Shown: positions 36,101 through 51,212 of the stretch, in pieces
Layout: the number at the start of each line of letters is the position of its first letter
Position numbering within the stretch: position 1 is the first letter of the stretch
NCBI GenBank assembly: GCA_963846325.1
Contig: CAWJVO010000009.1
Span: 251,083-315,082, forward strand
Direction: 5' to 3'
Source: an uncultured bacterium
GTDB lineage: Bacteria > Krumholzibacteriota > Krumholzibacteriia > Krumholzibacteriales > Krumholzibacteriaceae
Length of the DNA: 64,000 nucleotides
Translations under genes and position numbers: made by a program
The notes under the pieces: model-generated
The model's input: only the letters and a program-made list of their open reading frames with translations
The model's database searches: none
What the model was told of the DNA's origin: nothing

Positions 36101-39100
36101 GAACGAGAGCCGCGTGCCGGAGCCGCTGAGAATGACCGCCGCCTGGCCGTCGTTTCTGAGAGACACGGAGAATCCGTGGCTTTGCCCCTTCGAAACGACG
36201 CCGGGGTTCAGCGAACCGGGCACATACGCGATCGAGGCGGCCGACTGCACGAAGATCGGAGCCGCGTTCGGATACGCGGACGCATCCTGGGCCTGCGAGC
36301 CGTCCACCGAAGCGGTGACGGAGGCGTCGATGGTATCGGCGCCGAGAGGCGAGTTCGCGAGCACGTACATGCTCCGCCGGTAATCCCGCTCCGCGCCGGC
36401 CGGAAGATTATCGGGAAGGGCCGGATTCCATGTCCCGGTCACGCCGAAATAGCCGTGCTCGTAGCTGGGCACGATATCGTTCACGGAGACGAACGATCCG
36501 CCGCCGTTCTTGATCCGCACGTCGACCTCGAAGGTGTCCCCTCTGCTCACGATCGACGGAGCGGTGACCCGCATGATTTCGATATCGGAGACGGAGACGC
36601 TGTTCGAACCGGCGCTGAATTCCACCTGGTACGGCGAGCCGTACACGTCGGTTCCGACGAGCCTGACACGCGGCGTGTACGTTCCGCCGAGCATGCCCGC
36701 GGGGACTGCCGTCGTCTCGAAATCGAGCGTGTCCGTCGCCGATCCTCCCAGAAGGACCGGCGCGGCCAGGTGCGCGTCGTAGATATTCGAAGCGCTGTCC
36801 GCGAAGGAAATGAAGGTCTGCGTCGTCAGGTTCAGCCCCGTCGCGCTGCCGTTCGCGGCCGAGCACCTGAAGGTCGCCGGCTGCGTCGGGGTGAGGTAGC
36901 GGGGCGCGAGATATCCCGCGTACGCGCAGGCCGGGGGCGGCGCGAACGCGACGTTGGCCGTGCCGGCGGCGCTCCCCGCCAGGCTCTGGAACTGTATCGC
37001 GGAGAGCCCCGGCGTCGTGCCCGATCGGATGAAAACGGATACGGCCCCGCTCGATTCGGTCTGCCGCTCGACGGTGAGAGGCGTCGACGGATCCTTGTCC
37101 TCGCTCCCCACGGATCCGAGACTCGGCGTCACCCTCACGAGGCTGCCCGTCGCGACGATATTGCCGTACGCGTCGCGGACCGGGTTCGTCGTGATCGTGG
37201 AAACGCTCGACCCGTTCGCCGTTATCGTGCCGGGCACGATCGAGAAGAACGTGATGGCGCCGCTCGGAACCGCCGGTCTCACCGTGATCGTGTCGCTCGA
37301 GCTGAGCGCCCCTCCGGCGAGCGTCTGGGCCCGCAGGACGAGCTTCTCCGCCCTGTTATCGTACACGGTCACCGCCGCGCGGCCGTTCGTCAGTGTCACG
37401 GGATTCACCGAGAATACGGCCGAGCCGTCGCTCGCGAGATTCACGCGGCTCGTGTCGTCCTGAGTCGCTTCGTTGCCGTCGAGATCGTAGGCGATGAGCT
37501 GGAGCGCAAAGCTCTGACCGGCCGTCTTCGAATAACCGTCGGGCAGGACGTCGAATCGCGCGATCGAGCCGGCGGCCGTTCCGACGGTGAACAGCACACG
37601 CTCGAGCGCCGGCGGATTCGCGTCCAGAATCGAGGCGGAAACCGAATTGACCCCGGAATGCGTATCGGTCGTGAGACTGCAGACGGCGGCGCCCGTCGCG
37701 TCGGTCAGAACGAGCCCGTCTCCCGGCGCTCCCGTTCCGTCCCAGAGGCTCGGGCTTCCGCCGAGGTTGCTTGTGATGACGAAGCGGACGATCTCGGACG
37801 GCGCCGCGTTCCCGTATTCGTCGCTCACGCGCGCCCTGAGGCCGATCTTCGAACCGACGGGGACGCCGAGCGTGTCTCCCCGCACCTCGACGATCCGATA
37901 CGCGGGTCCGGGCCGAATGGTGATGAGATCGCTCCACTCCGAGAGGCTGTCCCCCGCGAGCGACAGCACGCGAATGCGATTGAAACCCGCCGTCGAATCG
38001 GATGCGGAGAATGACGAACGTCCCGCGGCCAGCGTCATCACGCCCGGAACGAACGCCATCGTCGTGCGCCGCGCGACGCAGCGCAGCTGCGAGCTCGAAT
38101 CGGTATCGATCAGGTTGCCGTATTCGTCGTACGCCGCGACGTTCCCCGTGAACGACTCGCCCGCCTGGAAAGAAACCCCCGGCAGCTCGAGCGATACCCG
38201 GGCGATCGCGCTCTTCGGCACGGTCGTCACGGTGAAGCTCTGCGTCTCGAGCCCTTCCGGATTCGCGTCGAGAATCGACGCGCGCACACGGTTCGTGCCC
38301 TGCAGCGTGTCGGTCCTGAACCAGAGCGAGGCGTTCCCGTTTCCGTCGGTGACGGCCTGCGGAGCCGCGAGCCGGCCGCCTCCCTCCTGCACGGTGAAGA
38401 ACACCGTCTGGCCGTTCACCGCGTTTCCGTAGCTATCGGCGACCCTCACGCGGAGCCTCAGCGAATCCCCGACCTGCACGCCGGTGCTGTCCCCGCCGAG
38501 CTTCACGAGCTGGTAGGCGGCGGCGTTGTCGACGGCCACGACGCCGCTGTAGCCCTTGATTGGATTGGCGGCGCTCGCCACCTCGACGCGGATCGCTTCC
38601 GCGACGGTGTACCGGAACCCATTCCCGGTGAACAATCCATTGACGAGGCTCCCGTTCGCCACCGAGAGCGCGCCCGACGCGACCAGGGAGCTGTCCGCGG
38701 CCTGAACGGCCCGGAAATCGATCGTATATCCCGCGGTCGTGACCCTGTTGTCGAAACGGTCCCTCGCTTCCGCCGAGACCGTGAAATCGGCGCCCGCCGT
38801 CGCGTTCGACGGCGCGACGACGACGTATGAGCTCACCGTGTCGTTCGGCACGATCGTGATGCTGAACTGATCCGGGGAGAGCGCTTCGACCTTGTCCCTG
38901 ACCTGAATCGGCCAGATTCCCTGCTTCGATCCCCTCCCGTAGAGCGTGACGACGCCGCCCGCGAGATCGGCTTCCGCGACCGGCGCGCCGAAATTCGTGA
39001 GGCTGAACGTGAATCCCCCCGCCACCGGCGGTTCGAGAACGATCCGGCTCGCGTTCGTGAGGTCTCGGTTTCCGTTCCCGTCGACCGCCTCGATCCTGAA

Positions 39101-41641
39101 CGAGAACGTGACTCCCGCCTGGCTGGTCTGTCCGGAGATGACCGTCGCCGCGAGGTCGGTGGCGCCGCTCGCGACCGACGAATAGGTAACGTCGGCGACG
39201 TTCTCCGCCGGGATCGAGTTGCCGGCGTCGATGACGTCGGAGAGCCCGGCCGACGCAGGCGCGTTGTACGTCACCGCGACGGTGCCCGTGCTGTCGCTCT
39301 TGCCCCTGCGCGCGTAGAGGCCAAGCGCCTCCGTGGAGCTTCCCGCGGCCGCCGTCAGCGTTCCGTCGGGCGAATCCTTGATGAATATCGTTACATACTC
39401 GTCCGGTATGAGATTGCCGAAAGCGTCGCGCATCGTCGCCGTCGCGATCGTCGGAGAGTTGACGGTGACCGATTTGCTCGTCGGGGTCAGCACGATGGAG
39501 CTGATCGTTCCGTGGTCGGTCGTCGCGACGAACGACACCGTGCGTATCGAACCCGACGGCATCGAGGCGTCGAGAGCGTCGGAGTCGATCCCGCTCACCG
39601 TTCCGAGCCGCCAGAGCTCCCCTGCCGCCGTCCCGCCGCTCCCCGTGACCGAGGTCATCTGCTGCCCCCCGAGGGTGCGGCTCGCGTCGAAATAGCCTCC
39701 GCCGCTCGTAATTGCCCAGCTCACCGTCACGCCGGGAACCGGGTTTCCGAATGCGTCTTCGACCCGGACGACGAGGGACGCGGCCACTTCCTGATTGACG
39801 ACGGCGCGCTGATCGTCGCCGCTCACGAGAAGCATTCGATCGGGAGAGGCGTATCCCACGACGAGGGGCGTCGCGGACGACGATGTCACGGCGCCGCTCG
39901 AAGCGTAGATCGTGATCGATTCGACCTTGTTGTCGGTGATGCCGAGCTCGGCGTCGCCTCCATCCACGGGGACGAACTGATACCTGACCGTGTCTCCGAT
40001 CTCGGAGAGGATCGAACCCGCCGCGTTTCCGAGGCCCCACGTGATGAAGTCGCCCGGTACCGTCGAGCTCGTATATATCTTCGCGATGCCGCTGAAATCG
40101 GTAATCCTGTTATTCTGGGCGTCGCGCGCGTCGAACGTCACCGGGGACGATTGGCCCGCCGTCGCCGTGCCGGGGTGCGTCACGTTGAAATGATGAAGCG
40201 TCCCCGCGCCGAAGGTGACCGCCACGGTTTTCGTAATGTCCGCACCGTCCGCCTTCGCGCTGATCGTTTTCCCCTCGGCGACGGTCGATTTCAGACTTCC
40301 GATCGCGCGGCCGTTCCCATCGGTTACTTCGATGGGCTGGCCGAATATGTTCCCGCTGCCCGTCGCTGCAATCGTCACGGTCTTCCCTGCGATACCGTTT
40401 CCCTGCGCATCCCGCGCGTAGACCGTCACGGCTATCCCATCGATCCCGTCCGCGACGGCTGAAGATTTGTCCACCTGTACGTCCGAAACCGCCGCGCTGA
40501 AGAGTCCCGGGGCAAACGTCACGTTTTGCGTCTGCGTAATCGGCGTCGCACCCACCCTCGCGCTGACCGTCTTCAGCTCCGCCTTCGTCGACCGCAGCTT
40601 CCCTACCAGCCGCCCGTCCGCCCCCGTCACTCCCGACGAGGGAGTGATCGTGTTCAACGTCCCCGTCGCCTCTATCGTCACCGAGCTCCCCGCTATCGGG
40701 TTCCCCTGAGCGTCCGTCACAAGCGCCGTCACCGCGATCGAGTCAGTCCCGTTCGCCACAGCCAACGCCTTGTCCACCGTTACCGTCGAAACCGCCGCGC
40801 TGAAGAGTCCCGCGGCAAACGTCACATTTTGCGTCTGCGTAATCGGCGTCGCACCCACCCTCGCGCTGACCGTCTTCAGCTCCGCCTTCGTCGACCGCAG
40901 CTTCCCGACCAGCCGCCCGTCCGCCCCCGTCACTCCCGACGAGGGAGTGATCGTGTTCAACGTCCCCGTCGCCTCTATCGTCACCGAGCTCCCCGCTATC
41001 GGGTTCCCCTGAGCGTCCGTCACAAGCGCCGTCACCGCGATCGAGTCAGTCCCGTTCGCCACAGCCAACGCCTTGTCCACCGTTACCGTCGAAACCGCCG
41101 CGCTGAAGAGTCCCGCGGCAAACGTCACGTTTTGCGTCTGCGTAATCGGCGTCGCACCCACCCTCGCGCTGACCGTCTTCAGCTCCGCCTTCGTCGACCG
41201 CAGCTTCCCGACCAGCCGCCCGTCCGCCCCCGTCACTCCCGACGAGGGAGTGATCGTGTTCAACGTCCCCGTCGCCTCTATCGTCACCGAGCTCCCCGCT
41301 ATCGGGTTCCCCTGAGCGTCCGTCACAAGCGCCGTCACCGCGATCGAGTCAGTCCCGTTCGCCACAGCCAACGCCTTGTCCACCGTTACCGTCGAAACCG
41401 CCGCGCTGAAGAGTCCCGCGGCAAACGTCACGTTTTGCGTCTGCGTAATCGGCGTCGCACCCACCCTCGCGCTGACCGTCTTCAGCTCCGCCTTCGTCGA
41501 CCGCAGCTTCCCTACCAGCCGCCCGTCCGCCCCCGTCACTCCCGACGAGGGAGTGATCGTGTTCAACGTCCCCGTCGCCTCTATCGTCACCGAGCTCCCC
41601 GCGATCGGGTTCCCCTGCGCATCCGTCACAAGCGCCGTCAC
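30185..41641 (-). CDS. giant Big_1 (invasin/intimin-type Ig-like) repeat adhesin, C-terminal 3818 aa with T9SS C-terminal sorting domain
   Basis: Many Big_1 modules of about 100 aa are present (VTDAQGNPIAGSSVTIEATG...TVDKALAVANGTDSIAVTAL). The C-terminus carries a T9SS/FlgD-Ig-like CTD (YPNPFRAGTEPTKICYFLKKNSAVSIKIYDLGGRLVWTRSI...GVYMCKVEAGSQSALFKIAVAK). It is probably continuous with the 41638-45066 fragments. Confidence 0.8.
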   Translation of the reverse strand: MTALVTDAQGNPIAGSSVTIEATGTLNTITPSSGVTGADGRLVGKLRSTKAELKTVSARVGATPITQTQNVTFAAGLFSAAVSTVTVDKALAVANGTDSIAVTALVTDAQGNPIAGSSVTIEATGTLNTITPSSGVTGADGRLVGKLRSTKAELKTVSARVGATPITQTQNVTFAAGLFSAAVSTVTVDKALAVANGTDSIAVTALVTDAQGNPIAGSSVTIEATGTLNTITPSSGVTGADGRLVGKLRSTKAELKTVSARVGATPITQTQNVTFAAGLFSAAVSTVTVDKALAVANGTDSIAVTALVTDAQGNPIAGSSVTIEATGTLNTITPSSGVTGADGRLVGKLRSTKAELKTVSARVGATPITQTQNVTFAPGLFSAAVSDVQVDKSSAVADGIDGIAVTVYARDAQGNGIAGKTVTIAATGSGNIFGQPIEVTDGNGRAIGSLKSTVAEGKTISAKADGADITKTVAVTFGAGTLHHFNVTHPGTATAGQSSPVTFDARDAQNNRITDFSGIAKIYTSSTVPGDFITWGLGNAAGSILSEIGDTVRYQFVPVDGGDAELGITDNKVESITIYASSGAVTSSSATPLVVGYASPDRMLLVSGDDQRAVVNQEVAASLVVRVEDAFGNPVPGVTVSWAITSGGGYFDASRTLGGQQMTSVTGSGGTAAGELWRLGTVSGIDSDALDASMPSGSIRTVSFVATTDHGTISSIVLTPTSKSVTVNSPTIATATMRDAFGNLIPDEYVTIFIKDSPDGTLTAAAGSSTEALGLYARRGKSDSTGTVAVTYNAPASAGLSDVIDAGNSIPAENVADVTYSSVASGATDLAATVISGQTSQAGVTFSFRIEAVDGNGNRDLTNASRIVLEPPVAGGFTFSLTNFGAPVAEADLAGGVVTLYGRGSKQGIWPIQVRDKVEALSPDQFSITIVPNDTVSSYVVVAPSNATAGADFTVSAEARDRFDNRVTTAGYTIDFRAVQAADSSLVASGALSVANGSLVNGLFTGNGFRYTVAEAIRVEVASAANPIKGYSGVVAVDNAAAYQLVKLGGDSTGVQVGDSLRLRVRVADSYGNAVNGQTVFFTVQEGGGRLAAPQAVTDGNGNASLWFRTDTLQGTNRVRASILDANPEGLETQSFTVTTVPKSAIARVSLELPGVSFQAGESFTGNVAAYDEYGNLIDTDSSSQLRCVARRTTMAFVPGVMTLAAGRSSFSASDSTAGFNRIRVLSLAGDSLSEWSDLITIRPGPAYRIVEVRGDTLGVPVGSKIGLRARVSDEYGNAAPSEIVRFVITSNLGGSPSLWDGTGAPGDGLVLTDATGAAVCSLTTDTHSGVNSVSASILDANPPALERVLFTVGTAAGSIARFDVLPDGYSKTAGQSFALQLIAYDLDGNEATQDDTSRVNLASDGSAVFSVNPVTLTNGRAAVTVYDNRAEKLVLRAQTLAGGALSSSDTITVRPAVPSGAITFFSIVPGTITANGSSVSTITTNPVRDAYGNIVATGSLVRVTPSLGSVGSEDKDPSTPLTVERQTESSGAVSVFIRSGTTPGLSAIQFQSLAGSAAGTANVAFAPPPACAYAGYLAPRYLTPTQPATFRCSAANGSATGLNLTTQTFISFADSASNIYDAHLAAPVLLGGSATDTLDFETTAVPAGMLGGTYTPRVRLVGTDVYGSPYQVEFSAGSNSVSVSDIEIMRVTAPSIVSRGDTFEVDVRIKNGGGSFVSVNDIVPSYEHGYFGVTGTWNPALPDNLPAGAERDYRRSMYVLANSPLGADTIDASVTASVDGSQAQDASAYPNAAPIFVQSAASIAYVPGSLNPGVVSKGQSHGFSVSLRNDGQAAVILSGSGTRLSFTDGVDTLRVALGAEGALPGGAVTNIVFPPAAVPLAMDAGSWPVSVRLRGTENGASFSQTLVLGDAIVVVDPAQLAYRPGSIAPTPVSKRSAVAFEVGIDNSGGATVACDPDSTWITFSSGPVVYTAKLDGSRGTTVAPGARTLYFNAVTIPDALPTGSYLPAVRVKGTENGLPFSTNLSPTDAIAVQSPPQLAIASTTVFPSDSITADQAKEWFASIRVDNNGGAAVRLDSLKVRLYAGSTEVTSECVLTALNLNPGVDTLNGGSYKIIAERFRDNVAGPMTTGTIVVESKIWGRDMNSGAVLIATTEFGGKGSYLVQTPADLAVAAIVPSADTVTAYQRRVWTVDVVLANTGQSDVALDLSESNSFLAFSTSGDFLVASPSELAGGGVVVEGGSTDTLRYRIDRTGSVPGVCSITSTVRAVEINSERAFTVSSGASGIHGDVLVQSEADLEVVGFASLQDPVTIAQERDWTIEMEVRNTGESDATLLLDRVDSTWVAVPEGTGFSIENPAEIPGGGRTLRGGSTAILPFVVRTTGSILPGRQVLTGAILASENNSGRTLHAERYAPSSDDSVSFDLRADPRYVAGSLTPAVVSSGASVSFEARISSDALSRSTLVLDPGKVFLSFGDADGDTFRTTLSPVSEHVLASGGEITLFFRNAPVDTAIAHVTFPVSLHLEGTENGNPFSAVLGALSDSVSVEQAPQLSINRIVVPQSVTRSQSAAWQARMVLRNNGEASVVIDFNAAKTFINFNLVGIGDRTYEYGIDYPDRLEGSGTDTLAGGAVDSLVFVVTPTGSTSGLALVNGKVTAVDINSGLTIVDDTFDGGFSYAAIQNPGSPAIARTTPERTAVTSGQATPWEITLEVCNGGEADLTLVTDSMYVFYDGRLPFSQAAPAAFSEGGLVLEGGSCKHLVFSVSPTPDIPSGADIVLHAHAGFIESNSSIYSAFDTRQAGSGSGAMRVQAPAQIRIAQVENEAPRSPYINIDQRFQVSFEVINEGEAPAESIRVALEHSGSSGIEDTLLVLGALSGAAAESDTFRITAGTASGLETFRAHIRGALDGNSRESDLVRVNPALDDTTRAIIQSLAALEIFSVRPSQGEVNASQAADWTVSVSIANRGEAPLALRAPAASDLAFSLLGTRRYDYFVIAPDTLGSGSSSFSLAGGASDSLIYRISSTGGDTGMVAIDAGAGWTDMNDPLREPGSAAGSGSVRVKAPSGLRIVSVTSDAPNNALFPNTSVVDTDQAFGVTVRVENTGGDDLDSVNVHLVSNGATRTAIVGDSLVSVPSKSERDFAFSIVAASAPGSEILTSSIVYAVSVNTGERVYPAQAAESIENLRIELPALLSCGVSVTAPAGALDDTLSVGQTFVVTAAVSNEGQALVDTTGEVTLALPPSVLLANSADPLVKRLGTGSAVSWTLVAPAAPSQDTVKARISRIPDGVNTALPAAVRLIESAVALRTVEAGGVSGCAISIAAPQGAVDGTLSTEQDFTARAIFSPSASTDSVWIEISAPAGFSVIGDRTRFIGRGTGTQVTVDWIMRAPMGHVDADTLVVRAGGKDVNSGRVVGTCRVVFPVHVLIRPALAMSARISGPDEALDGSVSISLPFTIEATAARSGEAALDTTGARMEIVLPAGQGYALDGAPETYRKPFYPGQSVVWNVRAPASPTSPGNIEVRLIEPYATDVNTNLPCEISTGAAFIPVQTQAGSVLMSNASSADSIPPFVVPQGAQDVPVMRIVLKNASGFTIGLDTLYVAIEDGRGSPAADPARSVASLSCAVGGSEYSAAVAGRNPVPIVVGHGFTLAPGSADTLLLAADIAARALAGEIRFEIGRSADVVVSISESGTRIGVALELDGGDIAGHFRSGPLSIMSARFDEYVHNYPNPFRAGTEPTKICYFLKKNSAVSIKIYDLGGRLVWTRSIGSGDAGGTGAPEGTWHEIPWNGRNDRGELVRNGVYMCKVEAGSQSALFKIAVAK

Positions 41642-42895
41642 CGTCGACCGAGTCCAGCCCCGTTCGCCACAGCCAACGCCTTGTCCACCGTTACCGTCGA
41701 AACCGCCGCGCTGAAGAGTCCCGCGGCAAACGTCACGTTTTGCGTCTGCGTAATCGGCGTCGCGCCCACCCTCGCGCTGACCGTCTTCAGCTCCGCCTTC
41801 GTCGACCGCAGCTTCCCTACCAGCCGCCCATCCGCCCCCGTCACTCCCGACGAGGGAGTGATCGTGTTCAACGTCCCCGTCGCCTCTATCGTCACCGAGC
41901 TCCCCGCTATCGGGTTCCCCTGAGCGTCCGTCACAAGCGCCGTCACCGCGATCGAGTCAGTCCCGTTCGCCACAGCCAACGCCTTGTCCACCGTTACCGT
42001 CGAGACCGAGGCGCTGAACGGCCCCGGGGGTGAACGTCACGTTTTGCGTCGTGCGTGATAGCCGTCGCGCCCACCCTCGCGCGTGACCGTCTTCAGCTCC
42101 GCCTTCGTCGACCGCAGCTTCCCTACCAGCCGCCCGTCCGCCCCCGTCACTCCCGACGAGGGAGTGATCGTGTTCAACGTCCCCGTCGCCTCTATCGTCA
42201 CCGAGCTCCCCGCTATCGGGTTCCCCTGAGCGTCCGTCACAAGCGCCGTCACCGCGATCGAGTCAGTCCCGTTCGCCACAGCCAACGCCTTGTCCACCGT
42301 TACCGTCGAAACCGCCGCGCTGAAGAGTCCCGCGGCAAACGTCACGTTTTGCGTCTGCGTAATCGGCGTCGCACCCACCCTCGCGCTGACCGTCTTCAGC
42401 TCCGCCTTCGTCGACCGCAGCTTCCCGACCAGCCGCCCGTCCGCCCCCGTCACTCCCGACGAGGGAGTGATCGTGTTCAACGTCCCCGTCGCCTCTATCG
42501 TCACCGAGCTCCCCGCTATCGGGTTCCCCTGAGCGTCCGTCACAAGCGCCGTCACCGCGATCGAGTCAGTCCCGTTCGCCACAGCCAACGCCTTGTCCAC
42601 CGTTACCGTCGAAACCGCCGCGCTGAACGGGCCCGGCACGAACGTAACTCCTCGGGAATTCGTGATCCCGACCCCTCCCGCCTTTGCGCTGATCGTCTTC
42701 AACTCCGCCTTCGTCGACCGAATTTTCGAGATCATCCGCCCGTCCGAACCGCTCAATCCCGCGGGAGGACTGATCGTGTTCGAGCTGCCTGTCGCTTCGA
42801 CAGTCACAACGCTTCCGCTTATCGGATTCCCCTGCGCGTCGGATACAAACACCGTTACGGTGACCGAGTCCGCCCCGTTCGCCGTCACCGTCGTT
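40467..42895 (-). repeat. tandem array of 303-bp (101-aa Big_1) coding repeats, several copies 100 % identical
   Basis: Identical plus-strand shadow ORFs recur at 40770, 41073, 41376 and 42290 (period 303). Divergent copies flank the array at 40467 and 42593. Confidence 0.85.
41638..41991 (-). CDS. adhesin fragment (one Big_1 repeat unit) isolated by frame disruptions
   Basis: The 117-aa sequence is identical to the repeat consensus. It is flanked by indel-containing repeat junctions. Confidence 0.5.
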   Translation of the reverse strand: MDKALAVANGTDSIAVTALVTDAQGNPIAGSSVTIEATGTLNTITPSSGVTGADGRLVGKLRSTKAELKTVSARVGATPITQTQNVTFAAGLFSAAVSTVTVDKALAVANGAGLGRR

Positions 42896-45066
42896 TTGTC
42901 CACTTGCACGTCCGACACCGCCGGGCTGAACGCCCCGGACGTGAACGTCACGTTTCTCGTCTGCGTAATCGGCGTCGCACCCACCCTCGCGCTGACCGTC
43001 TTCAGCTCCGCCTTCGTCGACCGCAGCTTCCCGACCAGCCGCCCATCCGCCCCCGTCATACCCGACGAGGGAGTGATCGTGTTCAACGTCCCCGTCGCCT
43101 CTATCGTCACCGAGCTCCCCGCGATCGGATTCCCGCTCGCATCCGTCACAAGCGCCGTCACCGTCACCGAGTCCACCCCGTTCGCCACAACCGTCGTCTT
43201 GTCCACTGTCACCGTCGAGACCGAGGCGCTGAACGCCCCGGGGGTGAACGTCACGTTCTGCGTCGTCGTGATAGCCACCCCGCCCACCCTCGCCGTGATC
43301 GTCTTCAGCTCCGCCTTCGTCGATCGCATTTTCCCGATCAGACGTCCGTCGGCTCCCGTCACTCCCGACGAGGGAGTGATCGTGTTCAACGTCCCCGTCG
43401 CCTCGAACGCCACGAAGCTGCCGCTTATCGGATTGCCATAGACATCCGTCACGAGAGCCGTCACCACGATCGAGTCGGCCCCGTCCGCTACGGCCGTCGA
43501 CTTGTCCACCGTCACATTCGAGGCCGCGGCGCTGAAGGGTCCGGGGGTGAAGGTCACCCCGGTAGATTCCACGATATCGACGCCGTCGATCTTCGCCGTG
43601 AGCGTTTTTCCCTCCGCCTTCATCGAAAGGATGCTCCCGACGGCGGAACCGGTTCCGCTCGTAACACTCGAGGGCTGATGGAGAACATTGCCGGAACCCG
43701 TCGACGCGATCAGAATGGTCGCTCCGTCGACGCCGTTGTAGAATACGTCGCGAGCCCTGATGGTGACCTCGATCGAATCCACGCCGTTTGCGATCGCCGA
43801 CGCCTTGTTGACCGATATTTCGGATGTGCTGGTATCAAATGGAGCGTTATCGATGTAGATCTGGGCCGATGCGGCCTCGAGCGTGGGAGGAATTCCGTTC
43901 ACGTCGAGGAACGCGAGGTCCACGGGGACGGCCATTTCCTTATCCGTGTTCCGGTAATCGAGATATGCATGATCGGAGCCGCTCGGTATGACGATCGACG
44001 TGATCGGCGTCGCATGGTCGGCCGTCGAATAGAAATCGCCCGGCTGTCCGAAAAGCGATATTCCTTGATCGTTGAGGAGCGGACTCGCGTTGCCCTCCGC
44101 GTCCTCGACCCCGAGCCGGTACCTCGCGTAATCCCCCGCGACGACTGTCGTATCGGATGGAGAGGCCATGAGTCTGAAAGGGGCGCCGGGATCGACGGTG
44201 ATCGCCTGTTGAGCGTCCGTCCACGATTGGCCGGAAGCGGAAGCGGTGATGGTCTTTCCGCCGGCGACCGCATCCCGGTAGTACAGCGATACCGTATCGA
44301 GTCCCGACGCGACGACGACCACGCTCGTCTCGACGAAATTCGAGCCTCCGAGATGCGAGAACCGGCCGCCGATCGCGGTCGAGCTCAACGAGATATTCTG
44401 ATCGCCGCTCACCGGGGAGGGATTGCCGAACTCATCCTCGGTTCTCACGCGGATCACGGCGCTTTCGCCGTCGGCGGGAAACGTCTGCGGCGAAGTGACG
44501 AACGAGAGCTGCACGATGGGTCCCGCGACGACGTTGAGCGTCGGCGACGACGCTATCGCAGCCTTGCCGGAGCCGTCGGGATTCGATCTCACGATGAATG
44601 GGACGCCGCTCTCGGCGCCGGTCTGGGCAGTCGCCCGGCCGCCGAGGTCGATACTCGCGTCGCCATACACGATGTCGATCGTCTGCCCGACCGACAGCGT
44701 GTCGACGGATATGGAAATCGTTCTGACGGCTATCGCGATGGCGGGCGCGCCGAGCACCCCTTCGCTCGATACGGTCACATATCCGGCAAGAGACGATGCG
44801 GAGATCTGGGGCGCGGACCAGCCGTCGGGAATCTCGAGCTCGATCGCCCCCGAAGTGAATGCTTCGGCGGCGGTGTAACGGATCGTCCAGGTGCCCGACT
44901 CTCCGACTACGACGTCGCTCGAAGGATTGATCGTCGCCGTCCCCGAGCCTCCCGCGCCGAAGGCCGCACCCGCGGCGAGCAGCGCGAAAACGCAGAGGCT
45001 CGCGGCGAGCGCGCGGTGTCGCAAGGAGATCGGAATCCTACGCTTCATGTACTCGATCCTGTTCAT
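42037..45066 (-). CDS. adhesin N-terminal fragment: signal peptide + Big_1/Ig-like repeats (1009 aa)
   Basis: MKRRIPISLRHRALAASLCVFALLAAGAAFGAG is a signal peptide. The C-terminal part of the ORF runs into the same 303-bp repeat array as the 30185-41641 ORF. Confidence 0.75.
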   Translation of the reverse strand: MNRIEYMKRRIPISLRHRALAASLCVFALLAAGAAFGAGGSGTATINPSSDVVVGESGTWTIRYTAAEAFTSGAIELEIPDGWSAPQISASSLAGYVTVSSEGVLGAPAIAIAVRTISISVDTLSVGQTIDIVYGDASIDLGGRATAQTGAESGVPFIVRSNPDGSGKAAIASSPTLNVVAGPIVQLSFVTSPQTFPADGESAVIRVRTEDEFGNPSPVSGDQNISLSSTAIGGRFSHLGGSNFVETSVVVVASGLDTVSLYYRDAVAGGKTITASASGQSWTDAQQAITVDPGAPFRLMASPSDTTVVAGDYARYRLGVEDAEGNASPLLNDQGISLFGQPGDFYSTADHATPITSIVIPSGSDHAYLDYRNTDKEMAVPVDLAFLDVNGIPPTLEAASAQIYIDNAPFDTSTSEISVNKASAIANGVDSIEVTIRARDVFYNGVDGATILIASTGSGNVLHQPSSVTSGTGSAVGSILSMKAEGKTLTAKIDGVDIVESTGVTFTPGPFSAAASNVTVDKSTAVADGADSIVVTALVTDVYGNPISGSFVAFEATGTLNTITPSSGVTGADGRLIGKMRSTKAELKTITARVGGVAITTTQNVTFTPGAFSASVSTVTVDKTTVVANGVDSVTVTALVTDASGNPIAGSSVTIEATGTLNTITPSSGMTGADGRLVGKLRSTKAELKTVSARVGATPITQTRNVTFTSGAFSPAVSDVQVDKTTVTANGADSVTVTVFVSDAQGNPISGSVVTVEATGSSNTISPPAGLSGSDGRMISKIRSTKAELKTISAKAGGVGITNSRGVTFVPGPFSAAVSTVTVDKALAVANGTDSIAVTALVTDAQGNPIAGSSVTIEATGTLNTITPSSGVTGADGRLVGKLRSTKAELKTVSARVGATPITQTQNVTFAAGLFSAAVSTVTVDKALAVANGTDSIAVTALVTDAQGNPIAGSSVTIEATGTLNTITPSSGVTGADGRLVGKLRSTKAELKTVTREGGRDGYHARRKT

Positions 45067-45480
45067 CCTGAATCACCTGAAAGCGGCAAATGAAGGGCAT
45101 CGCGCAAGCTATGTGCCAATAGCATTTTTCAATTGGCATACGCCGCCGAAAATCCTTTCGCGCAGGAACGGGTCGCTCAATTCGAAAAACGGCACCCAGG
45201 ACGGGAATCGCTCCCGTTTCATAATATATTGGTATTATGACAAATACACGCGTCGTTCCGGACTTGTTCGCACGCCGTGCCGACGACATCGGCAACTCTG
45301 CCCCGATCGCGACGATAGGGCGGACCCGAACCCGCGATTCGCGATCGCCTGATCGGAACCAAAATAGCACACGCCGAAGCAAATTGCAATAACTAGAAAG
45401 TCTTTAACTCTTTGTATTAACGTTCGTTAGTAGACACTTCGGAAACGAGCCCCGAAAGAAACCTCGGCATCCCCGAAAAC
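45067..45480. promoter_or_regulatory. intergenic region upstream of the giant adhesin gene with a lower-GC tract (candidate promoter/leader)
   Basis: It is the only sizeable non-coding gap in the surface-protein array, and it is AT-richer (aaatagcacacgccgaagcaaattgcaataactagaaagtctttaactctttgtattaacg). The 45038-45382 ORF overlapping it was rejected. Confidence 0.35.
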
Positions 45481-45507: not shown

Positions 45508-45529
45508 CGGCTATCCGGCGCATTCCCCT

Positions 45530-45925
45530 CTACCTGCGTACCTCGATGACGGAATTATACGCGCCGAAGCCGTCTTTGATCTTCTTCGGATTCCCGGGGT
45601 CGGGAATCCATTTTTCGCCGTCGATGAGAAACTTGTACTCGTAGCGTCCCGTTTGCAGCGGGAGCGTGATCGACCACACCCCCTTCTCCTCGCGATCGTA
45701 CATCGGATCGGCCCCGGTCGACCAGTTGTTGAAATCGCCGACGATGACGACCCGGTGCGCCTTGGGAGCATAGCAGACGAACCTCACTCCTCCCTCGACT
45801 TCCCGGGGTCCCGCCGACCGGATATCCTGCGCTTCCGTTTCCGGGCCTCTCGGCCCGCACGATACCGCGAGAACGGCGAGCGCCACGCAGAACGCGGCGC
45901 GAATCTTGATGAAAAGACGCTTCAT
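45530..45925 (-). CDS. lipoprotein with AMPK-beta/CBM48-type glycogen-binding domain
   Basis: A signal peptide (MKRLFIKIRAAFCVALAVLAVSCGP) is followed by VRFVCYAPKAHRVVIVGDFNNWSTGADPMYDREEKGVWSITLPLQTGRYEYKFLIDGEKWIPDPGNP. This is a strong AMPK1_CBM/CBM48 signature. Confidence 0.75.
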   Translation of the reverse strand: MKRLFIKIRAAFCVALAVLAVSCGPRGPETEAQDIRSAGPREVEGGVRFVCYAPKAHRVVIVGDFNNWSTGADPMYDREEKGVWSITLPLQTGRYEYKFLIDGEKWIPDPGNPKKIKDGFGAYNSVIEVRR

Positions 45926-45927
45926 AA

Positions 45928-46359
45928 TCACGGCACGATCAGGAGATTCGCCTTCCCCCCTTTTCCATCGTCGACGACCCTCGGATTTTCGGGATCGAGA
46001 TGCCACTCGGTCTCGTTGATGAGAAAACGGTAGCGGTAACGGCCCGGCCCGAGGCGGACCGCGAGCTCCCACACGCCCTTGTCGGCCGCTTTCTCCATGA
46101 GGCCGACAAGAACCTCTCCCTCTTCGGCGTCGCCGCGGGCCCAGTTGTTCCGGGACCAGTCGCCCGCGAGCTGAACCGTCCGCGCCGAGGGAACCTTGAC
46201 CCGGAAGGTGACCGTATCGCCCTCGATGCCCGGCATACCGAGCGATTTCTCGAGATACCGGCCGCAGGAGCCCGCGAGCAGGATTGCAGCCGCGATTGCG
46301 CACCGCCGCGTGACCGTTTTCGCGATAGACCGCATATTTCGATTATAATACCGTCGCAT
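45928..46359 (-). CDS. lipoprotein with CBM48-type glycogen-binding domain (paralog)
   Basis: The signal sequence with Cys is AIAAAILLAGSCG. The CBM48-like core is VQLAGDWSRNNW...GVWELAVRLGPGRYRYRFLINETEWHLDPENP. Confidence 0.7.
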   Translation of the reverse strand: MRRYYNRNMRSIAKTVTRRCAIAAAILLAGSCGRYLEKSLGMPGIEGDTVTFRVKVPSARTVQLAGDWSRNNWARGDAEEGEVLVGLMEKAADKGVWELAVRLGPGRYRYRFLINETEWHLDPENPRVVDDGKGGKANLLIVP

Positions 46360-48306
46360 CAGAAAGTAAAACCCGCTTCAACCGTGACGGCCCAATCCTC
46401 CGCGAGCGATTCCTCGGCTTCGAAGAGAACTTTCATCGATGCCGCTTCTCCGCTCGCCGCGAGCGAGCGAAAAACGCCGCGGTCCATGAGATACTCTTCC
46501 CTTCCGTGTCCGGAAAACGCGTACAGCCAGCGGTCGAAGGCGTACGGATCGACCCCCGTCCCGACGGCGCACCAGAGCCCTCGCCCGAGGTCGCCGCGAA
46601 CGGAAAGGAACGCGTCGACGAAATCGCGCGACGCGCCTCCATATTCATACGAAACGCCGCGCATATCGAGGAGAAACGTCACGCGCGGATGCACGGCGAT
46701 TCCGTTCGCGAGACGGATCTCCCCGAAACGGGGCCCGTCGGCGGCGCCGTCCCACGCTTCCGTTATCTCGATCAGCAGGCCGGTTCCCCAGGGGAGATTC
46801 GGGGGATTCTCGCGCCTCCAGCCGCACGAGAGCCTCACCTCGCAGATGTGCTTCGAGGAGAGGAACGGGACGCGATCGTACGTGAGCTCGTCGCCGTCGA
46901 GCCAGAAATTCGTCCTGCCGAGCCAGAATATCGAGCCGGTATTCATGGCGGAGTATCTCTCGAACTTCCCCGCGAGGCCGATCGAAAGCGCGGAATCCCC
47001 GAAGGCGAGAGTCCCGTCGAGGCTTTCCGTCGATCCGTCCGGCCTTCCGCCCCTCGCGGAACGCTCCCCTTCGAGCGTCGTCCGCCTGAATACGAGCCCG
47101 GCGCGCGATCGAACGCCCGCGCGCGAGATGCCGACCGAGAGCCGGCGCCCATGCTCCCATTCGCGCTCGGTCGAGACATGCTCGAAGGCGTTCGCGCCTC
47201 CGGCGTCCTCGAAGAGCCGTCCCGTCGCCGAGAGAAAGCTCCTGCCGAAGAGAAGCTCCCCGTCGAGAGCCACGCCGCTCCTCGGGGGAACCGTGAGAGA
47301 CAGCCCGTGGAACACGTCCCGCTCGTACCCGACGAAGAAATCGGCGCCGGCCGCCGGCAGGCGCCAATACCCTTCCTTCGCCCTTCGATCCTCCCTGAAC
47401 AGGTATCGGATCGCCGCGCCTTGTATCTTCGCTCCGAATCCCAGCCCGTAGAGGTCCGAATCGACGAGATCGCGGCGGGAAAAGAGATCGGACGAATCGG
47501 CCGTTCCCTCGAGACCCGAGCGATACCCGCGCAAACGGCTCGCATAGATGAACCGACCGTCGAGGTCGAAGGGCAAGATCCCCTCCACCTCCACTCCTCG
47601 ACTGAAAAGGCTCGCCGGGTATCGGTAGGGACCGACCGTTCCGATCAGCCCGATCGAGTCGCCGAGGTCGATCGCCGCTTCGGGACGGCTGAAGGCGCGG
47701 ATCGTCCCCCGTTCGAAACGATATGAAGCGAGGCCGCGCAGCACGAAAGCTTCTCCCGCGCCCGATTCTTCCTCCGGGAACTCCCCGGTCAGCCCGATCG
47801 CGAGATCGGCGTCGATTCGTTCGTCGATCGTGCCCCCGATTCCCCACACGGAGTGCAGAGCTCCCCCGCCGTCGCTCCCGACGGCGTCGATCCTGACGAC
47901 GGGCACGAGACTGGCCTTCGCGGATCCGGCCAGATTGGCCGTCGATTCCGCGAGGATAACCTCGAGGGCGCCGTCCCGTTCCCTGAGTATGAAGCAGGAG
48001 TTGCCGTTCGAGTCGACGCAGGGATTATCGGGATCCGTCTTCGAGGCGCCGTCCGCCATGAAACCGTACCGGTAGTTTCCCGGAAGGAGATAGAGCCGTA
48101 TCTCGAACCCGTCTTCCGTTTCGGCCATGAGATCGATCGTCGGATTCCAACCGTTGAAATCGCCGACGAGGAACACCTTGCCGGCCTTGAACCCCCCGAT
48201 CCTGAAGACGACCTCCTCCTCTTCGACGCCGACCGAGGCACGGCACTGCGCCGCGGCGAACAAGGCCGCCAAGCAGGAAACGAACGCCACCCATCGCCGC
48301 TTCATC
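46359..48306 (-). CDS. outer-membrane protein: N-terminal CBM48-like domain fused to a large predicted beta-barrel
   Basis: A signal peptide (MKRRWVAFVSCLAALFAAAQC) is followed by VFLVGDFNGWNPTIDLMAETEDGFEIRLYLLPGNYRYGFMADG. About 550 aa of Gly/Ser/Arg-alternating beta-like sequence follows. It ends in VEAGFTF, the C-terminal Phe signature of OM barrels. Confidence 0.65.
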
Positions 48307-49852
48307 TCGATCCCCCGCCTCCGAACCATATCCGCGTGAAGAACGTGACGAACCGGTCGTTCGACGCGGGATAGAATCCCAGCGCATACGCGTCGAACGA
48401 GCCGTCGAGCCGGACGCTCTCCTCCGACGGCACAAAAGACCCGAGCGCCGCCTGGAAGAGAAACCGCTCCCGCGGCCTGAATTCGATTTCGACGTTGTAA
48501 CGATTCAGGCGCGAGCGATAGAGAAAGAGCGCGCTCTTCGCCGAGACGCGCGAACCGAGATTGAGGGTCCCCCGCGCCAGATACGACATGAGGTTCGCTC
48601 CGCCGAGATCGTCGATGCGCACCATCATGACGATTCGGGATAACGCGTTGTCGTCGACGAAAGAGACCGCCGCCGAGCTTCTCTCTCCCTTGGCGCACAG
48701 AAGGCTCTGCCGCATCTCGAAGCCGCCGCGGTACCGCATTCGCGCGCTTCCGACGATCCTGCTGAAATCCTGTCCCCACCACGCGCCGTCGGCGGCGTCG
48801 ACGGAAAGGAGCGCGTCGTAGCTCGCCGGCTTCCACCACGCCAGCAGCCTGGCTTCGCGCAATCCTCGCGCAGTTTCACCTTCGGGATTCGCGAATCCGC
48901 GCCCGGCGTATCGATACCCCGGCACGAGACCGATCGCGCCCCGATCGCCCATTCCGACCCCGAGGCCTTCGATCTCTGCCGCGAAGGCGTCGTTATCCGA
49001 GAACAGCGCGCCGAAATCGTCGAGTCGCACGGCGCTCCAGTCCAGATCGAAAAGAGCGTTGTTTCGAAGCTCGTTCCATCCGCCGCTCTGCGTGCGGGCG
49101 AGCTCGGCGATAAGATCGATCCCCTTCACCCTGAAACCGACGTCCGTCCCGACGGTGACCCGGTCGTCGTACCGTCCGTCGATCATCTCCGAGATCGTGA
49201 GCCCGGCATGCCATCGGGCTCTCTGGAATCCCTCGAGCCTGAAGACCCGAAGACGATCCTCGTCTCCCCGATACGAGGGCAGTCCGCCATGGATCGCGAC
49301 GTCGTCGTGATCGCGGAGAACCGATTCGATATAGCCCAGCGAGAGATGCGCGCCCGCGTTCGCCGTGAGGGCGATCCCTTCGCCGCGATCGACGATGCCC
49401 GGCGATTCGTCCGACAGCAGCTTGAGGAGCCTTTGATCGGTTCGATACACCCGTTCGCGGGAGAAGAGCCTGCCGGAGACCGCGCCTCCCAGCAGATCGA
49501 AGCCGACGTGCCCCTGGTCGAGAACGAACTGCTGATCATGATACTCGCCGCCGAGGCGGAAGCCGGTCGCGCCCTTCGCGAATACCGCGATACCCCGGGG
49601 ATGGATCATTTCCCCGAGAACCGCGAGCCGGTCGTTGACGTGCGAGCGGCTCTGCAGATCGTTCCACGGAAAGCTCGAAGACCATTCCCTGACGTCGATG
49701 CGGCTCAGGTAGTGCGCGGACCATTTGAATACGACGGAAGAGTCGGAGTGCTCCTCCGCCCGCGCCGGCCGAGGCGCCGCGATCGAGATCAGGGAGAGCG
49801 CAACGAACGCGACGCGCGAGCGCCGCATGAAGCCCTCGTGCATCTCTCTCAT
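48302..49852 (-). CDS. secreted/outer-membrane hypothetical protein
   Basis: A signal peptide (MRRSRVAFVALSLISIAAPRPARA) is present. The start overlaps the upstream stop as ATGA. The body is beta-rich. The track ORF's upstream extension is Arg-rich junk. Confidence 0.5.
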   Translation of the reverse strand: MREMHEGFMRRSRVAFVALSLISIAAPRPARAEEHSDSSVVFKWSAHYLSRIDVREWSSSFPWNDLQSRSHVNDRLAVLGEMIHPRGIAVFAKGATGFRLGGEYHDQQFVLDQGHVGFDLLGGAVSGRLFSRERVYRTDQRLLKLLSDESPGIVDRGEGIALTANAGAHLSLGYIESVLRDHDDVAIHGGLPSYRGDEDRLRVFRLEGFQRARWHAGLTISEMIDGRYDDRVTVGTDVGFRVKGIDLIAELARTQSGGWNELRNNALFDLDWSAVRLDDFGALFSDNDAFAAEIEGLGVGMGDRGAIGLVPGYRYAGRGFANPEGETARGLREARLLAWWKPASYDALLSVDAADGAWWGQDFSRIVGSARMRYRGGFEMRQSLLCAKGERSSAAVSFVDDNALSRIVMMVRIDDLGGANLMSYLARGTLNLGSRVSAKSALFLYRSRLNRYNVEIEFRPRERFLFQAALGSFVPSEESVRLDGSFDAYALGFYPASNDRFVTFFTRIWFGGGGSR

Positions 49853-50718
49853 GGCGCCTCCCCGCTCGATCCCCCGGGAAGACGCGCCTCGCAGGCGAGC
49901 GTCCAGGTCACTCCCTCGCTCTCGGCCGCCGCGAACGCGATCGAGCCCCCCAGCCATGACCCGGTCCAGCGCGCTCCTCCCGACACGCGGCCGTCGGAGA
50001 GGCCGGCCAGGAGCTCGATCGGCACGGCGGTCTTGACGCCGACCCCGTAATGAAACGTCGTCCGGCCGGCGCGGCGCGCGGTCGCGAACGAGACGACGAC
50101 CGTGTTCTCCCAGAAGTACGAGGCGCCCCATCTCTGTTCGCGGCGCCACGCCTCGCCGCCGCGCGCTCGGTCGAGGCTCGCGTCCCTGATATTGCCCGCC
50201 GAATACGCGAACGAAACGACGGGGAGCGGCTTCAGAATGATCCCCGCGTCGCCGCTCGCGATCCACTCCGAACCCTTTTCCCCCGTATCGGCTCGTTCCC
50301 TCGAAATGCCGCCGATCGTCAGGCTCGCCCCGAACGAGAGAAACGATCCCTGCGTTCCTTCGACGAGCCGGTGCGCGGCTCCCACCGCGAAAAGGTCGTT
50401 CGATTCGCTCCCGGAGCCGGCGCGATACCAGCCGAGAGCGCCCCGCGTTCCGCCCGCTCCCGCCCCGAAGGCGACTCTCGATTCCCGTCCTCCCCGGACG
50501 CCCGCGGGCTCGGCGTAATCGAGATACAGCGCGGGACTGGCGGATATGACGATCCCCGCGGGATTCACGAAGAGCGCGGCGGGCCCGTCGGCGAGAGAGA
50601 CGAGCGCTCCTCCCATCGCCTGCGACCGGGCCACGGCCGCGGATTCGTTCAGCCGGGCTTCGACGCGCGCGCCCAGCAGACACGACACGCACAGCAGGAG
50701 GAGGCGGCGTTTCATCAC
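49849..50718 (-). CDS. FadL/PorV-like outer-membrane beta-barrel protein
   Basis: A signal peptide (MMKRRLLLLCVSCLLGA) is followed by SQAMGGALVSLADGPAALFVNPAG. This is the same R..A.GGA....D.....NPA motif seen in the 28276-30180 protein. The family call rests on recalled motifs. Confidence 0.5.
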   Translation of the reverse strand: MMKRRLLLLCVSCLLGARVEARLNESAAVARSQAMGGALVSLADGPAALFVNPAGIVISASPALYLDYAEPAGVRGGRESRVAFGAGAGGTRGALGWYRAGSGSESNDLFAVGAAHRLVEGTQGSFLSFGASLTIGGISRERADTGEKGSEWIASGDAGIILKPLPVVSFAYSAGNIRDASLDRARGGEAWRREQRWGASYFWENTVVVSFATARRAGRTTFHYGVGVKTAVPIELLAGLSDGRVSGGARWTGSWLGGSIAFAAAESEGVTWTLACEARLPGGSSGEAP

Positions 50719-51212
50719 AGGGGACCCTTGGCCTCGTCGATCCTCTTCAGGCCTTCGAGTATCAGGTGATCGAGCTTGACGTCGAGAAGGATGTCCTCGT
50801 CCTCGGGAAGGACGTCATGGAAGAAGATGAATTGTCCTTTTCGCCACGACAACACCTCGTAGACGACCTCTTTCATCTGCTCCTGTATCGCCTCGGCGAG
50901 GGAATTGTAGTCGAGATAGCCGCGCTCGATGAGCGCGCGGCCGATCCGGCCGCGCCCTTCCCTCGACACGGAATCGTGGAGCACCTTGCCGAGCTGCTCC
51001 TCGGTCAGCCATCCCTTTTCGATGAGGAACTTGCCCAGCTTCTTCTTTCGGGTGTCCATCGTGGCGTAGATGAGCTCTCCGCCCTTGAAATAGAAGCTCG
51101 CCACGTTGTCGTGCGTCACGAATTTGATCTCGCCCGTGAGAAGCGAGAAGCTCATTATCTGAAACGCGATCGAAGGCTCGAGTATCGAAAGGTCCCCCCC
51201 GAAATCCATCAC
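50715..51212 (-). CDS. DUF4388-like domain protein
   Basis: The N-terminus GDLSILEPSIAFQIMSFSLLTGEIKFV resembles the DUF4388 motif. The assignment is by recall. The gene overlaps the downstream gene start as ATGA. Confidence 0.45.
   Translation of the reverse strand: MMDFGGDLSILEPSIAFQIMSFSLLTGEIKFVTHDNVASFYFKGGELIYATMDTRKKKLGKFLIEKGWLTEEQLGKVLHDSVSREGRGRIGRALIERGYLDYNSLAEAIQEQMKEVVYEVLSWRKGQFIFFHDVLPEDEDILLDVKLDHLILEGLKRIDEAKGPL

Follow-up and report, generated by a model that had tools for sequence, protein, structure and literature searches.

The outer-membrane module described here is a six-gene operon, F-E-D-C-B-A, located in a 64,000-nucleotide stretch of DNA (the window; contig CAWJVO010000009.1) from an uncultured bacterium of the Krumholzibacteriaceae, phylum Krumholzibacteriota. 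It is best classed as a glycan-handling locus that resembles the starch utilization system (Sus) in its logic, with a barrel, putative glucan-binding lipoproteins and, in related loci, amylases, but without the TonB plug and the SusD protein that define Sus. With a probability of roughly 0.4, the module would be a TonB-independent, non-Sus device for the capture and uptake of α-glucans, coupled to a surface protein exported by the type IX secretion system (T9SS). This reading is based on the intact sugar site of lipoprotein A, the wide, plug-less barrels of C and D, the PorV-like protein E and the neighbouring gene for a giant T9SS cargo protein.

Composition of the operon

The operon and its products are as follows (window coordinates).

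45530–51212, minus strand: operon F-E-D-C-B-A, six consecutive genes, with every junction an overlap or a 2-nt gap
50715..51212, minus strand: F, cytoplasmic PATAN/DUF4388 protein, 165 aa (Pfam DUF4388, NCBIfam NF053729)
49849..50718, minus strand: E, predicted small outer-membrane barrel, 289 aa with signal peptide, divergent PorV/PorQ (FadL-like) relative (sequence profiles)
48302..49852, minus strand: D, predicted outer-membrane β-barrel of about 24 strands, 516 aa with signal peptide, no family match
46359..48305, minus strand: C, 648 aa with signal peptide, predicted CBM48-like sandwich followed by a barrel of about 22 strands
47955–48242, minus strand: N-terminal CBM48-like β-sandwich of C (residues 22–117)
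46362–47915, minus strand: barrel of C, about 22 strands
45928..46359, minus strand: B, 143-aa lipoprotein with a degenerate CBM48 domain (Pfam, lipobox)
45530..45925, minus strand: A, 131-aa lipoprotein with an intact CBM48/AMPK-β-type glycogen-binding domain (Pfam, phmmer, lipobox)

The six genes form one operon. Overlaps of 4 nt (GTGA or ATGA) join F to E, E to D and D to C, one base is common to C and B (TGATG), B and A are separated by a 2-nt gap, and the G+C content at third codon positions lies between 0.76 and 0.82 across all six. The original prediction, made from the sequence alone, had noted tight linkage by ATGA overlaps for the upstream genes of the cluster, and its description of the cluster is borne out in each element open to testing. 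The cluster lies directly downstream of ppdK, as that prediction had stated, with the end of ppdK 52 nt from F; at the other end, about 460 bp of spacer lie between A and the giant gene.

The three CBM48 domains that had been read from sequence motifs all hold in a Pfam profile search, that of B marginally. Against gathering cut-offs of 22.4 bits for CBM_48 (PF02922) and 26.8 bits for AMPK1_CBM (PF16561), A scores 56.9 and 47.1 bits and passes both; C reaches 40.2 bits with AMPK1_CBM, above the cut-off; and B reaches 23.3 bits with CBM_48, just above the cut-off, and 26.1 bits with AMPK1_CBM, just below it. The domain of A also matches the carbohydrate-binding module (CBM) of AMPK β2 (Protein Data Bank (PDB) entry 2f15; phmmer E value 4e-8). 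Sugar-contact positions, which we take from Polekhina et al. 2005 to be W100, K126, W133, L146 and N150 of the AMPK β CBM, were mapped by alignment through the same entry. In all 12 orthologues, which come from two phyla, A has W, K, W, F (in place of L) and N at these five positions, and it is the only one of the operon's three CBM48 domains to keep the full set. Judged by these residues, the domain of A appears fully competent for sugar binding and would bind α-glucan. It belongs to the fold family of the CBM48 domains of AMPK β, GlgB and pullulanase and has the same five contact positions, but the domains encoded here are exported, on two lipoproteins and one barrel fusion, and none is carried by a kinase or a glycoside hydrolase. 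In B both tryptophans are mostly retained and the remaining contacts are altered (K to R/L/Y, L to K/R/P and N to A).

The signal peptides of A and B end in a lipobox of a small residue and cysteine (AVSC followed by G in A, AGSC followed by G in B) that is conserved throughout the orthologues, in agreement with their earlier assignment as lipoproteins. After the lipid-bearing cysteine of either protein, no obvious acidic surface-export motif of the Bacteroidota type was seen by eye, and the host phylum's own rules may differ. As a separate observation, the NCBIfam model of a T9SS plug protein (NF052315) cross-matches CBM48 domains at about model positions 250–345, weakly for A (E value 0.002) and with up to 47.6 bits for tandem-CBM48 proteins of Bacteroidota, which suggests a CBM48-like sandwich in the T9SS plug protein.

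Both large proteins of the operon are barrels by structure prediction, as had been expected from their sequences. The model of C comprises the N-terminal sandwich, a linker of about 13 residues and the barrel, in which helices at residues 601–636 precede the last strand and the chain ends in the AGFTF already noted. Its predicted 22-strand barrel fold is that of a TonB-dependent transporter or SusC, and its N-terminal domain is the CBM48 sandwich. D is predicted with a pLDDT (predicted local distance difference test) score of 78.6 as a barrel of about 24 strands, and its structural matches are generic, as are those of C. Neither protein has a plug, a TonB box or a TonB_dep_Rec match in Pfam or NCBIfam, and PDB sequence-profile searches with the barrels of D and C returned nothing meaningful. 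The two were considered as paralogues and rejected (hhalign probability 1.8%). The family of D is rare: among 1.84 billion representatives, an exhaustive HMMER search with its profile yielded only 64 clusters.

When the strand number of an outer-membrane barrel is even, both termini lie in the periplasm. By this general rule, the even strand number of C, together with the short linker between the CBM48 domain and the first strand, would place this domain at the periplasmic face or in the lumen. A periplasmic or plug-like position is therefore more likely than exposure at the cell surface. The surface-exposed CBM48 modules of the original prediction were not borne out, either for C or for A and B, which carry no obvious surface-export motif.

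E has the N-terminal GG...NPAG motif of the FadL/PorV superfamily, through which its profile weakly matches the FadL-type protein CymD (6z34). It scores 20.3 bits with the NCBIfam model PorV_fam (NF033709), below the cut-off of 90 bits; the model is matched by 10 of 10 E orthologues (best E value 4e-8), every score lying below the cut-off. A distant homologue from locus L044, described below, passes PorV_fam with 91.7 bits, and the E profile aligns with it over its full length (hhalign probability 99.5% over 263 columns). By motif and profile alignment, E belongs to the PorV/PorQ superfamily as a divergent member, in line with the PorV/FadL-like barrel first suggested for it.

The first gene of the operon, F, encodes a protein with no signal peptide, and the ATG at 51209 is probably its true start. 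Its DUF4388 assignment is secure (PF14332, 88.6 bits against a cut-off of 25), with the match in two stretches around an α-helical insert at about residues 55–112. The insert is a tandem pair of MshEN-type motifs, made up of two 24-residue repeats, KLGKFLIEKGWLTEEQLGKVLHDS and RIGRALIERGYLDYNSLAEAIQEQ, and F scores 56.9 bits against a cut-off of 38 with the MshE-related c-di-GMP_motif model of NCBIfam (NF053729). Across 13 orthologues, the motif residues G60, L63, L74, L78, G91, L94 and Q112 do not vary, and R89 is nearly invariant. The profile built from these sequences matches solved domains that bind cyclic di-GMP (c-di-GMP), namely those of PilF (6f8l, 5e-17), PilB (5tsg, 5e-9) and MshE (5htl, 4e-7). 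From the MshEN consensus, which we take from Wang et al. 2016 to be RLGxx(L/V/I)(L/V/I)xxG(L/V/I)(L/V/I)xxxxLxxxLxxQ, F deviates in that its first motif ends in S instead of Q and in that its inter-motif spacer has 7 residues, against presumably 5 in MshE. The insert is the 'alpha-clip' long known from PATAN domains and from the N-terminal regions of the ATPases of pili and type II secretion, and its motifs make F a likely c-di-GMP sensor.

F is an ordinary stand-alone PATAN protein with the two-repeat helical insert, which it shares with other alpha-clip PATAN proteins and which resembles the MshEN c-di-GMP receptors (MshE, PilB, PilF and NfrB), but it heads an outer-membrane operon, and the cluster contains no gene for a pilus or for type II secretion. 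The literature searched did not report that a PATAN insert binds c-di-GMP; in Synechocystis, PATAN proteins bind PilB/PilC of the pilus motor (bioRxiv 10.1101/2021.06.11.447907).

Conservation of the module and its α-glucan neighbourhoods

The cluster is conserved as a unit, a point on which the original prediction had made its own standing depend. The order F-E-D-C-B-A is identical, wherever the contig allows, in 13 distinct loci (L001, of which L002 is a second, independent copy, L003–L010, L012 and L085–L087), over which the identity of C falls from 78% to 27–29% in genomes annotated as Latescibacterota. The closest relatives in the database are annotated as Candidatus Krumholzibacteriota; a cluster representative 100% identical to C exists, and an exact-sequence look-up of C itself returned no record. 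Genes for the lipopolysaccharide core (heptosyltransferase and Kdo transferase) elsewhere in the window fit a diderm organism.

The wider gene order is conserved as well, and runs DUF4438 protein, S8 peptidase carrying a T9SS-type tail, ppdK, in most cases a CDP-alcohol phosphatidyltransferase, F to A, a spacer of 370–490 bp and a giant gene with Big_1 repeats. The giant gene follows the module in all six gene-called loci (L001, L003, L004, L085, L086 and L087). In the same six, which cover both phyla, the S8 peptidase with its T9SS-type tail lies upstream of ppdK, and a DUF4438 protein precedes the peptidase in the window, L001, L003 and L086. The CDP-alcohol phosphatidyltransferase gene, which often overlaps or abuts F, lies between ppdK and F at these locus coordinates.

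L003, 6250–6987: CDP-alcohol phosphatidyltransferase
L004, 5124–5897: CDP-alcohol phosphatidyltransferase
L085, 5087–5959: CDP-alcohol phosphatidyltransferase
L086, 6261–7037: CDP-alcohol phosphatidyltransferase
L087, 5115–5912: CDP-alcohol phosphatidyltransferase

It is absent from this position in the window, in L001 and probably in L005, and may belong to the operon in the lineages that carry it. Latescibacterota-type loci alone have an extra gene, of 383 aa and with no family match, between F and E.

L004, 6375–7526: 383-aa gene between F and E
L085, 6431–7582: 383-aa gene between F and E
L087, 6390–7541: 383-aa gene between F and E

More distant versions of the module, from Fibrobacteraceae-like and unclassified bacteria, lie in what appear to be loci for α-glucan use. 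Hidden Markov models (HMMs) built from the orthologues found E-like and C-like genes in L044, from an unclassified bacterium, and in L025, from a Fibrobacteraceae metagenome-assembled genome. L044 encodes, in this order, a T9SS-tailed protein, E, a product of about 500 aa that matches no family, a 707-aa protein with an N-terminal CBM48 domain, a second protein carrying three CBM48 domains, two permeases of the MalF/MalG type, an SBP_bac_1 binding protein and a GH57 enzyme with CBM48 and Glucodextran_C domains. In L025, a set composed of a T9SS tail, E, a D-like gene (D'), C and a small CBM48 protein stands beside two GH13 amylases. The C family aligns with the C-like proteins of L044 and L025 over the full length, including the barrel (hhalign probabilities 98.7% and 99.0%), and the E of L025 is matched by the E-family HMM only, with 77 bits.

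Direct profile comparison of D with the D' proteins of L044 and L025 gave no link (probability 1–2%). Intermediates connect them: the D profile matches P0192 (9e-15), P0192 matches the D' of L104 (7e-39), and the latter matches the D' of L025 (2e-30). Through these transitive matches, D is homologous to the D' of the amylase-linked modules, and the weaker hits of the exhaustive D search, down to an E value of 9e-15, are themselves D' proteins of that type. A metagenome scan with the D' alignment added 19 more loci, in which the order giant, E, D', C and CBM48 protein is found wherever the contig allows. MalEFG-like genes and/or GH13/GH57 enzymes are present in eight of the eight loci with enough flanking sequence (L025, L044, L088, L089, L092, L096, L100 and L104), and beyond the α-glucan genes the amylase-linked loci contain unrelated genes. 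The giants of these loci, of about 2050–2200 aa, carry Glucodextran_C, Big_1/Invasin_D3 and CarboxypepD_reg domains and a T9SS-type tail, and the giant protein lies on opposite sides of the module in the two deep branches. The conserved core of the module is E, D, C and one or more CBM48 proteins next to a giant T9SS Big_1 protein. No SusD-like gene was found in the window's cluster, nor among the genes scanned or called in related loci; together with the missing TonB plug, this agrees with the 'non-Sus, non-TonB' character first proposed.

When a genome collection was scanned with the full alignment of C, through the generic pattern GDFN[GN]WNP, most of the proteins returned were unrelated CBM48 proteins; only L005–L013, L025 and L044 were informative. 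When the alignment was restricted to the barrel of C, close relatives dominated the homologue search and no new distant members appeared. High-scoring 'C-like' matches in loci of Bacteroidota and Spirochaetota were rejected as tandem-CBM48 proteins without a barrel fusion. As a side observation, L014, L016, L023, L026 and L028 (Bacteroidota) and L033 (Spirochaetes) encode secreted proteins of about 400–500 aa, which in L014, L016, L023 and L033 contain several tandem CBM48 domains; these proteins are uncharacterised and unrelated to the barrel fusion.

The giant adhesin and the flanking genes

Features on the downstream side of the operon are as follows.

45361..45389, minus strand: conserved upstream element TTGCAATTTGCT-N6-TNTGCTATTTT, the invariant block in a six-locus alignment of the spacer between A and the adhesin
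45104..45118, minus strand: sigma-54-type -24/-12 element TGGCACATAGCTTGC, 38 nt upstream of the adhesin ATG
30185..45066, minus strand: giant adhesin, about 4960 aa, in which a signal peptide is followed by numerous Big_1/Invasin_D3 repeats and a C-terminal T9SS type A sorting domain
40467–43542: tandem array with a 303-bp unit, 10.1 copies at 89% identity, encoding 101-aa Big_1 repeats
28276..30180, minus strand: PorV/PorQ-family barrel fused to C-terminal TPR repeats, an unusual fusion, directly downstream of the adhesin

The adhesin matches Big_1 with 336 and 335 bits, Invasin_D3 and CARDB, and its last 100 residues match the sorting domain TIGR04183 with 27.7 bits against a cut-off of 23. 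Its frame is broken two or three times inside the 303-bp array, near 41620–42100, as judged by tblastn comparison with the L001 orthologue. The ppdK frame also changes, at a run of seven G (window 52767–52800), with 403 N-terminal residues in one frame and residues 415–912 in another. The breaks in both genes look like assembly indels; that in ppdK is probably a homopolymer assembly error, the alternative being a real pseudogene. The protein encoded directly after the adhesin scores 104.4 bits with PorV_fam, against a cut-off of 90, and its TPR repeats were identified by Pfam.

The sigma-54-type element TGGCACATAGCTTGC is perfect and is the only match of its type in the window at one mismatch or fewer. 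The pattern TGGCAY-N5-TTGC occurs at the same position in nine distinct Krumholzibacteriia-type loci (ten with the duplicate L002) and not in Latescibacterota-type loci. Given this element, the adhesin is probably transcribed separately from the operon. The exact pattern TTGCAATTTGCT-N6-TNTGCTATTTT, which contains the palindrome ATTGCAAT, is found in L001, L002, L003, L005 and L006 and could be a promoter or an enhancer/regulator-binding site. Rfam gave no match, including riboswitches of the c-di-GMP type, in the window at gathering thresholds, and none with an E value of 1 or less in 44900–45700.

Further from the operon, window 24017–28279 (minus strand) contains a long open reading frame (ORF), or a series of them, with HATPase_c_2, sCache, HAMP, SpoIIE phosphatase, HTH and three STAS domains; this signalling stretch of the partner-switching type is probably several genes or frameshifted. 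On the other side, the S8 peptidase with a T9SS-type tail occupies 54133–56849, just upstream of ppdK. Two large minus-strand ORFs of 770 and 669 aa (58326–60638 and 60670–62679) have no Pfam or NCBIfam match and lie next to the gene of a small protein (62892–63944) in which a T9SS sorting domain is clear.

Possible roles in uptake, anchoring and other processes

In the proposed mechanism, E, D, C and the CBM48 protein would be an ancient unit of bacteria of the Fibrobacterota–Chlorobiota–Bacteroidota (FCB) group, working with a giant T9SS-secreted Big_1 surface protein. Three barrels (E, D and C) and three CBM48 modules (on C, B and A) would make up an outer-membrane complex, and the giant protein, its sorting domain docked on E, would hold the substrate or substratum at the cell surface. 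The conduit would be provided by the wide barrels C and/or D. The CBM48 modules, that of C at the periplasmic mouth, would bind the incoming α-glucan chain (glycogen, starch or maltodextrin), and this binding might prevent back-sliding, as a ratchet replacing TonB energy. The chain would then be passed to periplasmic enzymes or importers encoded elsewhere. F could tie the expression or activity of the complex to c-di-GMP, and thereby to the switch to surface-attached life.

Several observations weigh against this uptake reading. In Krumholzibacteriia, the CBM48 domain of C has G, R or M at the equivalent of K126 and S at that of W133, although W and K are retained in the C proteins of Latescibacterota and of L044; with contact residues lost in both C and B, some of the CBM48 modules may be structural. 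No amylase or sugar importer was found within 10 kb of the module in the 13 loci of Krumholzibacteriota and Latescibacterota, so the functional link rests on relatives with about 17–25% identity in C. Pfam recognises no domain for glucan binding in the window's adhesin, and its orthology with the giants of the amylase-linked loci was considered and found unsupported beyond the Big_1 repeats and the tail. It also has a putative sigma-54-type promoter of its own. The synteny extends well beyond the cluster, and the adjacency of the adhesin could therefore partly reflect general synteny. Three of these points, namely the lack of an adjacent amylase or importer in the window's own lineage, the adhesin without a glucan domain and the degenerate CBM48 domains of C and B, hold the uptake reading to the probability given at the outset; for the same reasons, the module may have shifted towards adhesin display or envelope tethering in this lineage. 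The α-glucan capture or uptake of the original prediction is thus supported by the distant homologues of E, D and C that lie beside MalEFG-like importer genes and GH13/GH57 amylases, and lacks such neighbours in the lineage for which it was made.

The best surviving alternative, which we consider somewhat unlikely, is a non-nutritional platform for the anchoring or attachment of the giant T9SS adhesin. E and the PorV/PorQ–TPR protein would bind the sorting domain, in the way that PorV/PorQ or PorP/SprF-like proteins bind their cargo, D and C would form the membrane base, the CBM48 domains would serve as protein–protein or envelope-glycan tethers, and F would couple display to c-di-GMP. Such a platform would account for the membership of E in the PorV/PorQ superfamily, for the Big_1 giant with a T9SS-type tail as the one partner beside the module in both deep branches, and for the type A sorting domain of the window's adhesin, whose gene is followed by a second PorV/PorQ-family gene. 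A CBM48-like region in the T9SS plug model points the same way, as does c-di-GMP control, which is common among adhesins. The strict conservation of the glycan contacts in A is hard to square with a purely structural role, however, and the embedding of sister modules in α-glucan loci is hard to explain on these terms; PorU and PorZ, needed by known attachment complexes, are not in the cluster, and extra barrels of 22–24 strands occur in no known T9SS anchor. Anchoring and uptake are compatible, and the one does not exclude the other.

It is improbable that the module exports or retains an α-glucan exopolysaccharide or capsule under c-di-GMP control, with C or D as the pore and the CBM48 domains guiding or holding the polymer. 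The MshEN-type motif of F, which is shared with the c-di-GMP-activated glycosyltransferase NfrB, and the predicted periplasm-facing CBM48 domains would suit such a role. Among the genes that were called, Pfam-scanned or compared with references in more than 30 loci, however, neither the cluster nor its immediate surroundings include a glycosyltransferase, synthase, co-polymerase or flippase, such as would accompany an exopolysaccharide export system of the AlgE, PgaA, PelB or Wza type, and in the sister loci the genes are those of catabolic enzymes and an importer, with none for biosynthesis. Least probable of all is an envelope tether, in which C, in the manner of the SLH-porin OmpM, would use its N-terminal sandwich to connect the outer membrane with a glycan layer of the periplasm (peptidoglycan or a secondary polymer) and A and B would be Lpp-like: the predicted globular domain at the periplasmic end of the barrel of C would fit, and envelope glycan anchoring had also been proposed in the original prediction, but CBM48 is an α-glucan module of which A keeps the α-glucan contact set, a housekeeping tether is unexpected in amylase loci and in so rare a family as that of D, and the match of C to OmpM1 covers the barrel only.

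The gene set has counterparts in several known systems and coincides with none of them. With Sus and Sus-like polysaccharide utilization loci it shares a 22-strand barrel accompanied by small starch- or glycogen-binding lipoproteins, an origin in the FCB group and, in relatives, adjacent amylases. Unlike Sus, it has no TonB box, plug or SusD, and a CBM48 domain is fused to the N-terminus of the barrel; it adds the barrels D and PorV-like E, is linked to a giant cargo protein of the T9SS and also, in this lineage, to a PATAN protein with c-di-GMP motifs; and its binding modules may face the periplasm instead of the surface. The T9SS anchors (PorV/PorQ, and the PorP/SprF-like partners of SprB) resemble the module in that E is a superfamily member beside a giant T9SS cargo and a second PorV/PorQ gene follows the adhesin. 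E differs from them in its PorV_fam score (20 against 90 bits) and its shorter length (289 aa), the cluster has no PorU or PorZ, and the known anchors have neither CBM48 proteins nor barrels of 22–24 strands. If the uptake reading is true, the module would share with LamB-MalEFGK and CymA a TonB-independent passage of α-glucan oligomers and a hand-over to an ATP-binding cassette (ABC) importer, which is encoded in loci of the L044, L088 and L092 types. There is no sequence similarity to either, C and D have about 22–24 strands against 18 in LamB and 14 in CymA, and binding would be by dedicated CBM48 modules as opposed to an in-channel greasy slide. No description of the gene set F-E-D-C-B-A was found in the literature searched, which accords with the earlier remark that no characterised system of this composition was known.

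The gene set is both conserved and rare. It is found in no fewer than three FCB lineages and brings wide barrels without a plug together with exported glycogen-binding modules and a T9SS giant. Most of what is understood about how large glycans cross the outer membrane concerns TonB-dependent systems of the SusCD type and small specific porins. The most far-reaching form of the uptake reading, in which E, D, C and CBM48 proteins constitute a new class of glycan importer in FCB bacteria that lack SusCD, driven by a ratchet of CBM48 modules that are fused or tethered at the periplasmic mouth of a plug-less barrel of 22–24 strands, physically coupled through PorV-like E to the giant surface protein that captures the polymer, and controlled by c-di-GMP via PATAN in Krumholzibacteriota and Latescibacterota, is unlikely but has a real chance of being right. 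If the module is an importer, it would represent a third architectural solution for glycan uptake across the outer membrane, would give a function to families now labelled 'hypothetical' or 'glycogen-binding domain-containing', and would help to explain feeding or attachment in uncultured Krumholzibacteriota, Latescibacterota and Fibrobacterota. With F, the idea that a PATAN/alpha-clip protein may serve as a c-di-GMP receptor can be put to the test, and c-di-GMP control of the module through F would be the first functional link of such proteins to an outer-membrane system instead of a pilus motor. The module as a whole provides a concrete set of candidate partners for giant T9SS adhesins outside the Bacteroidota.

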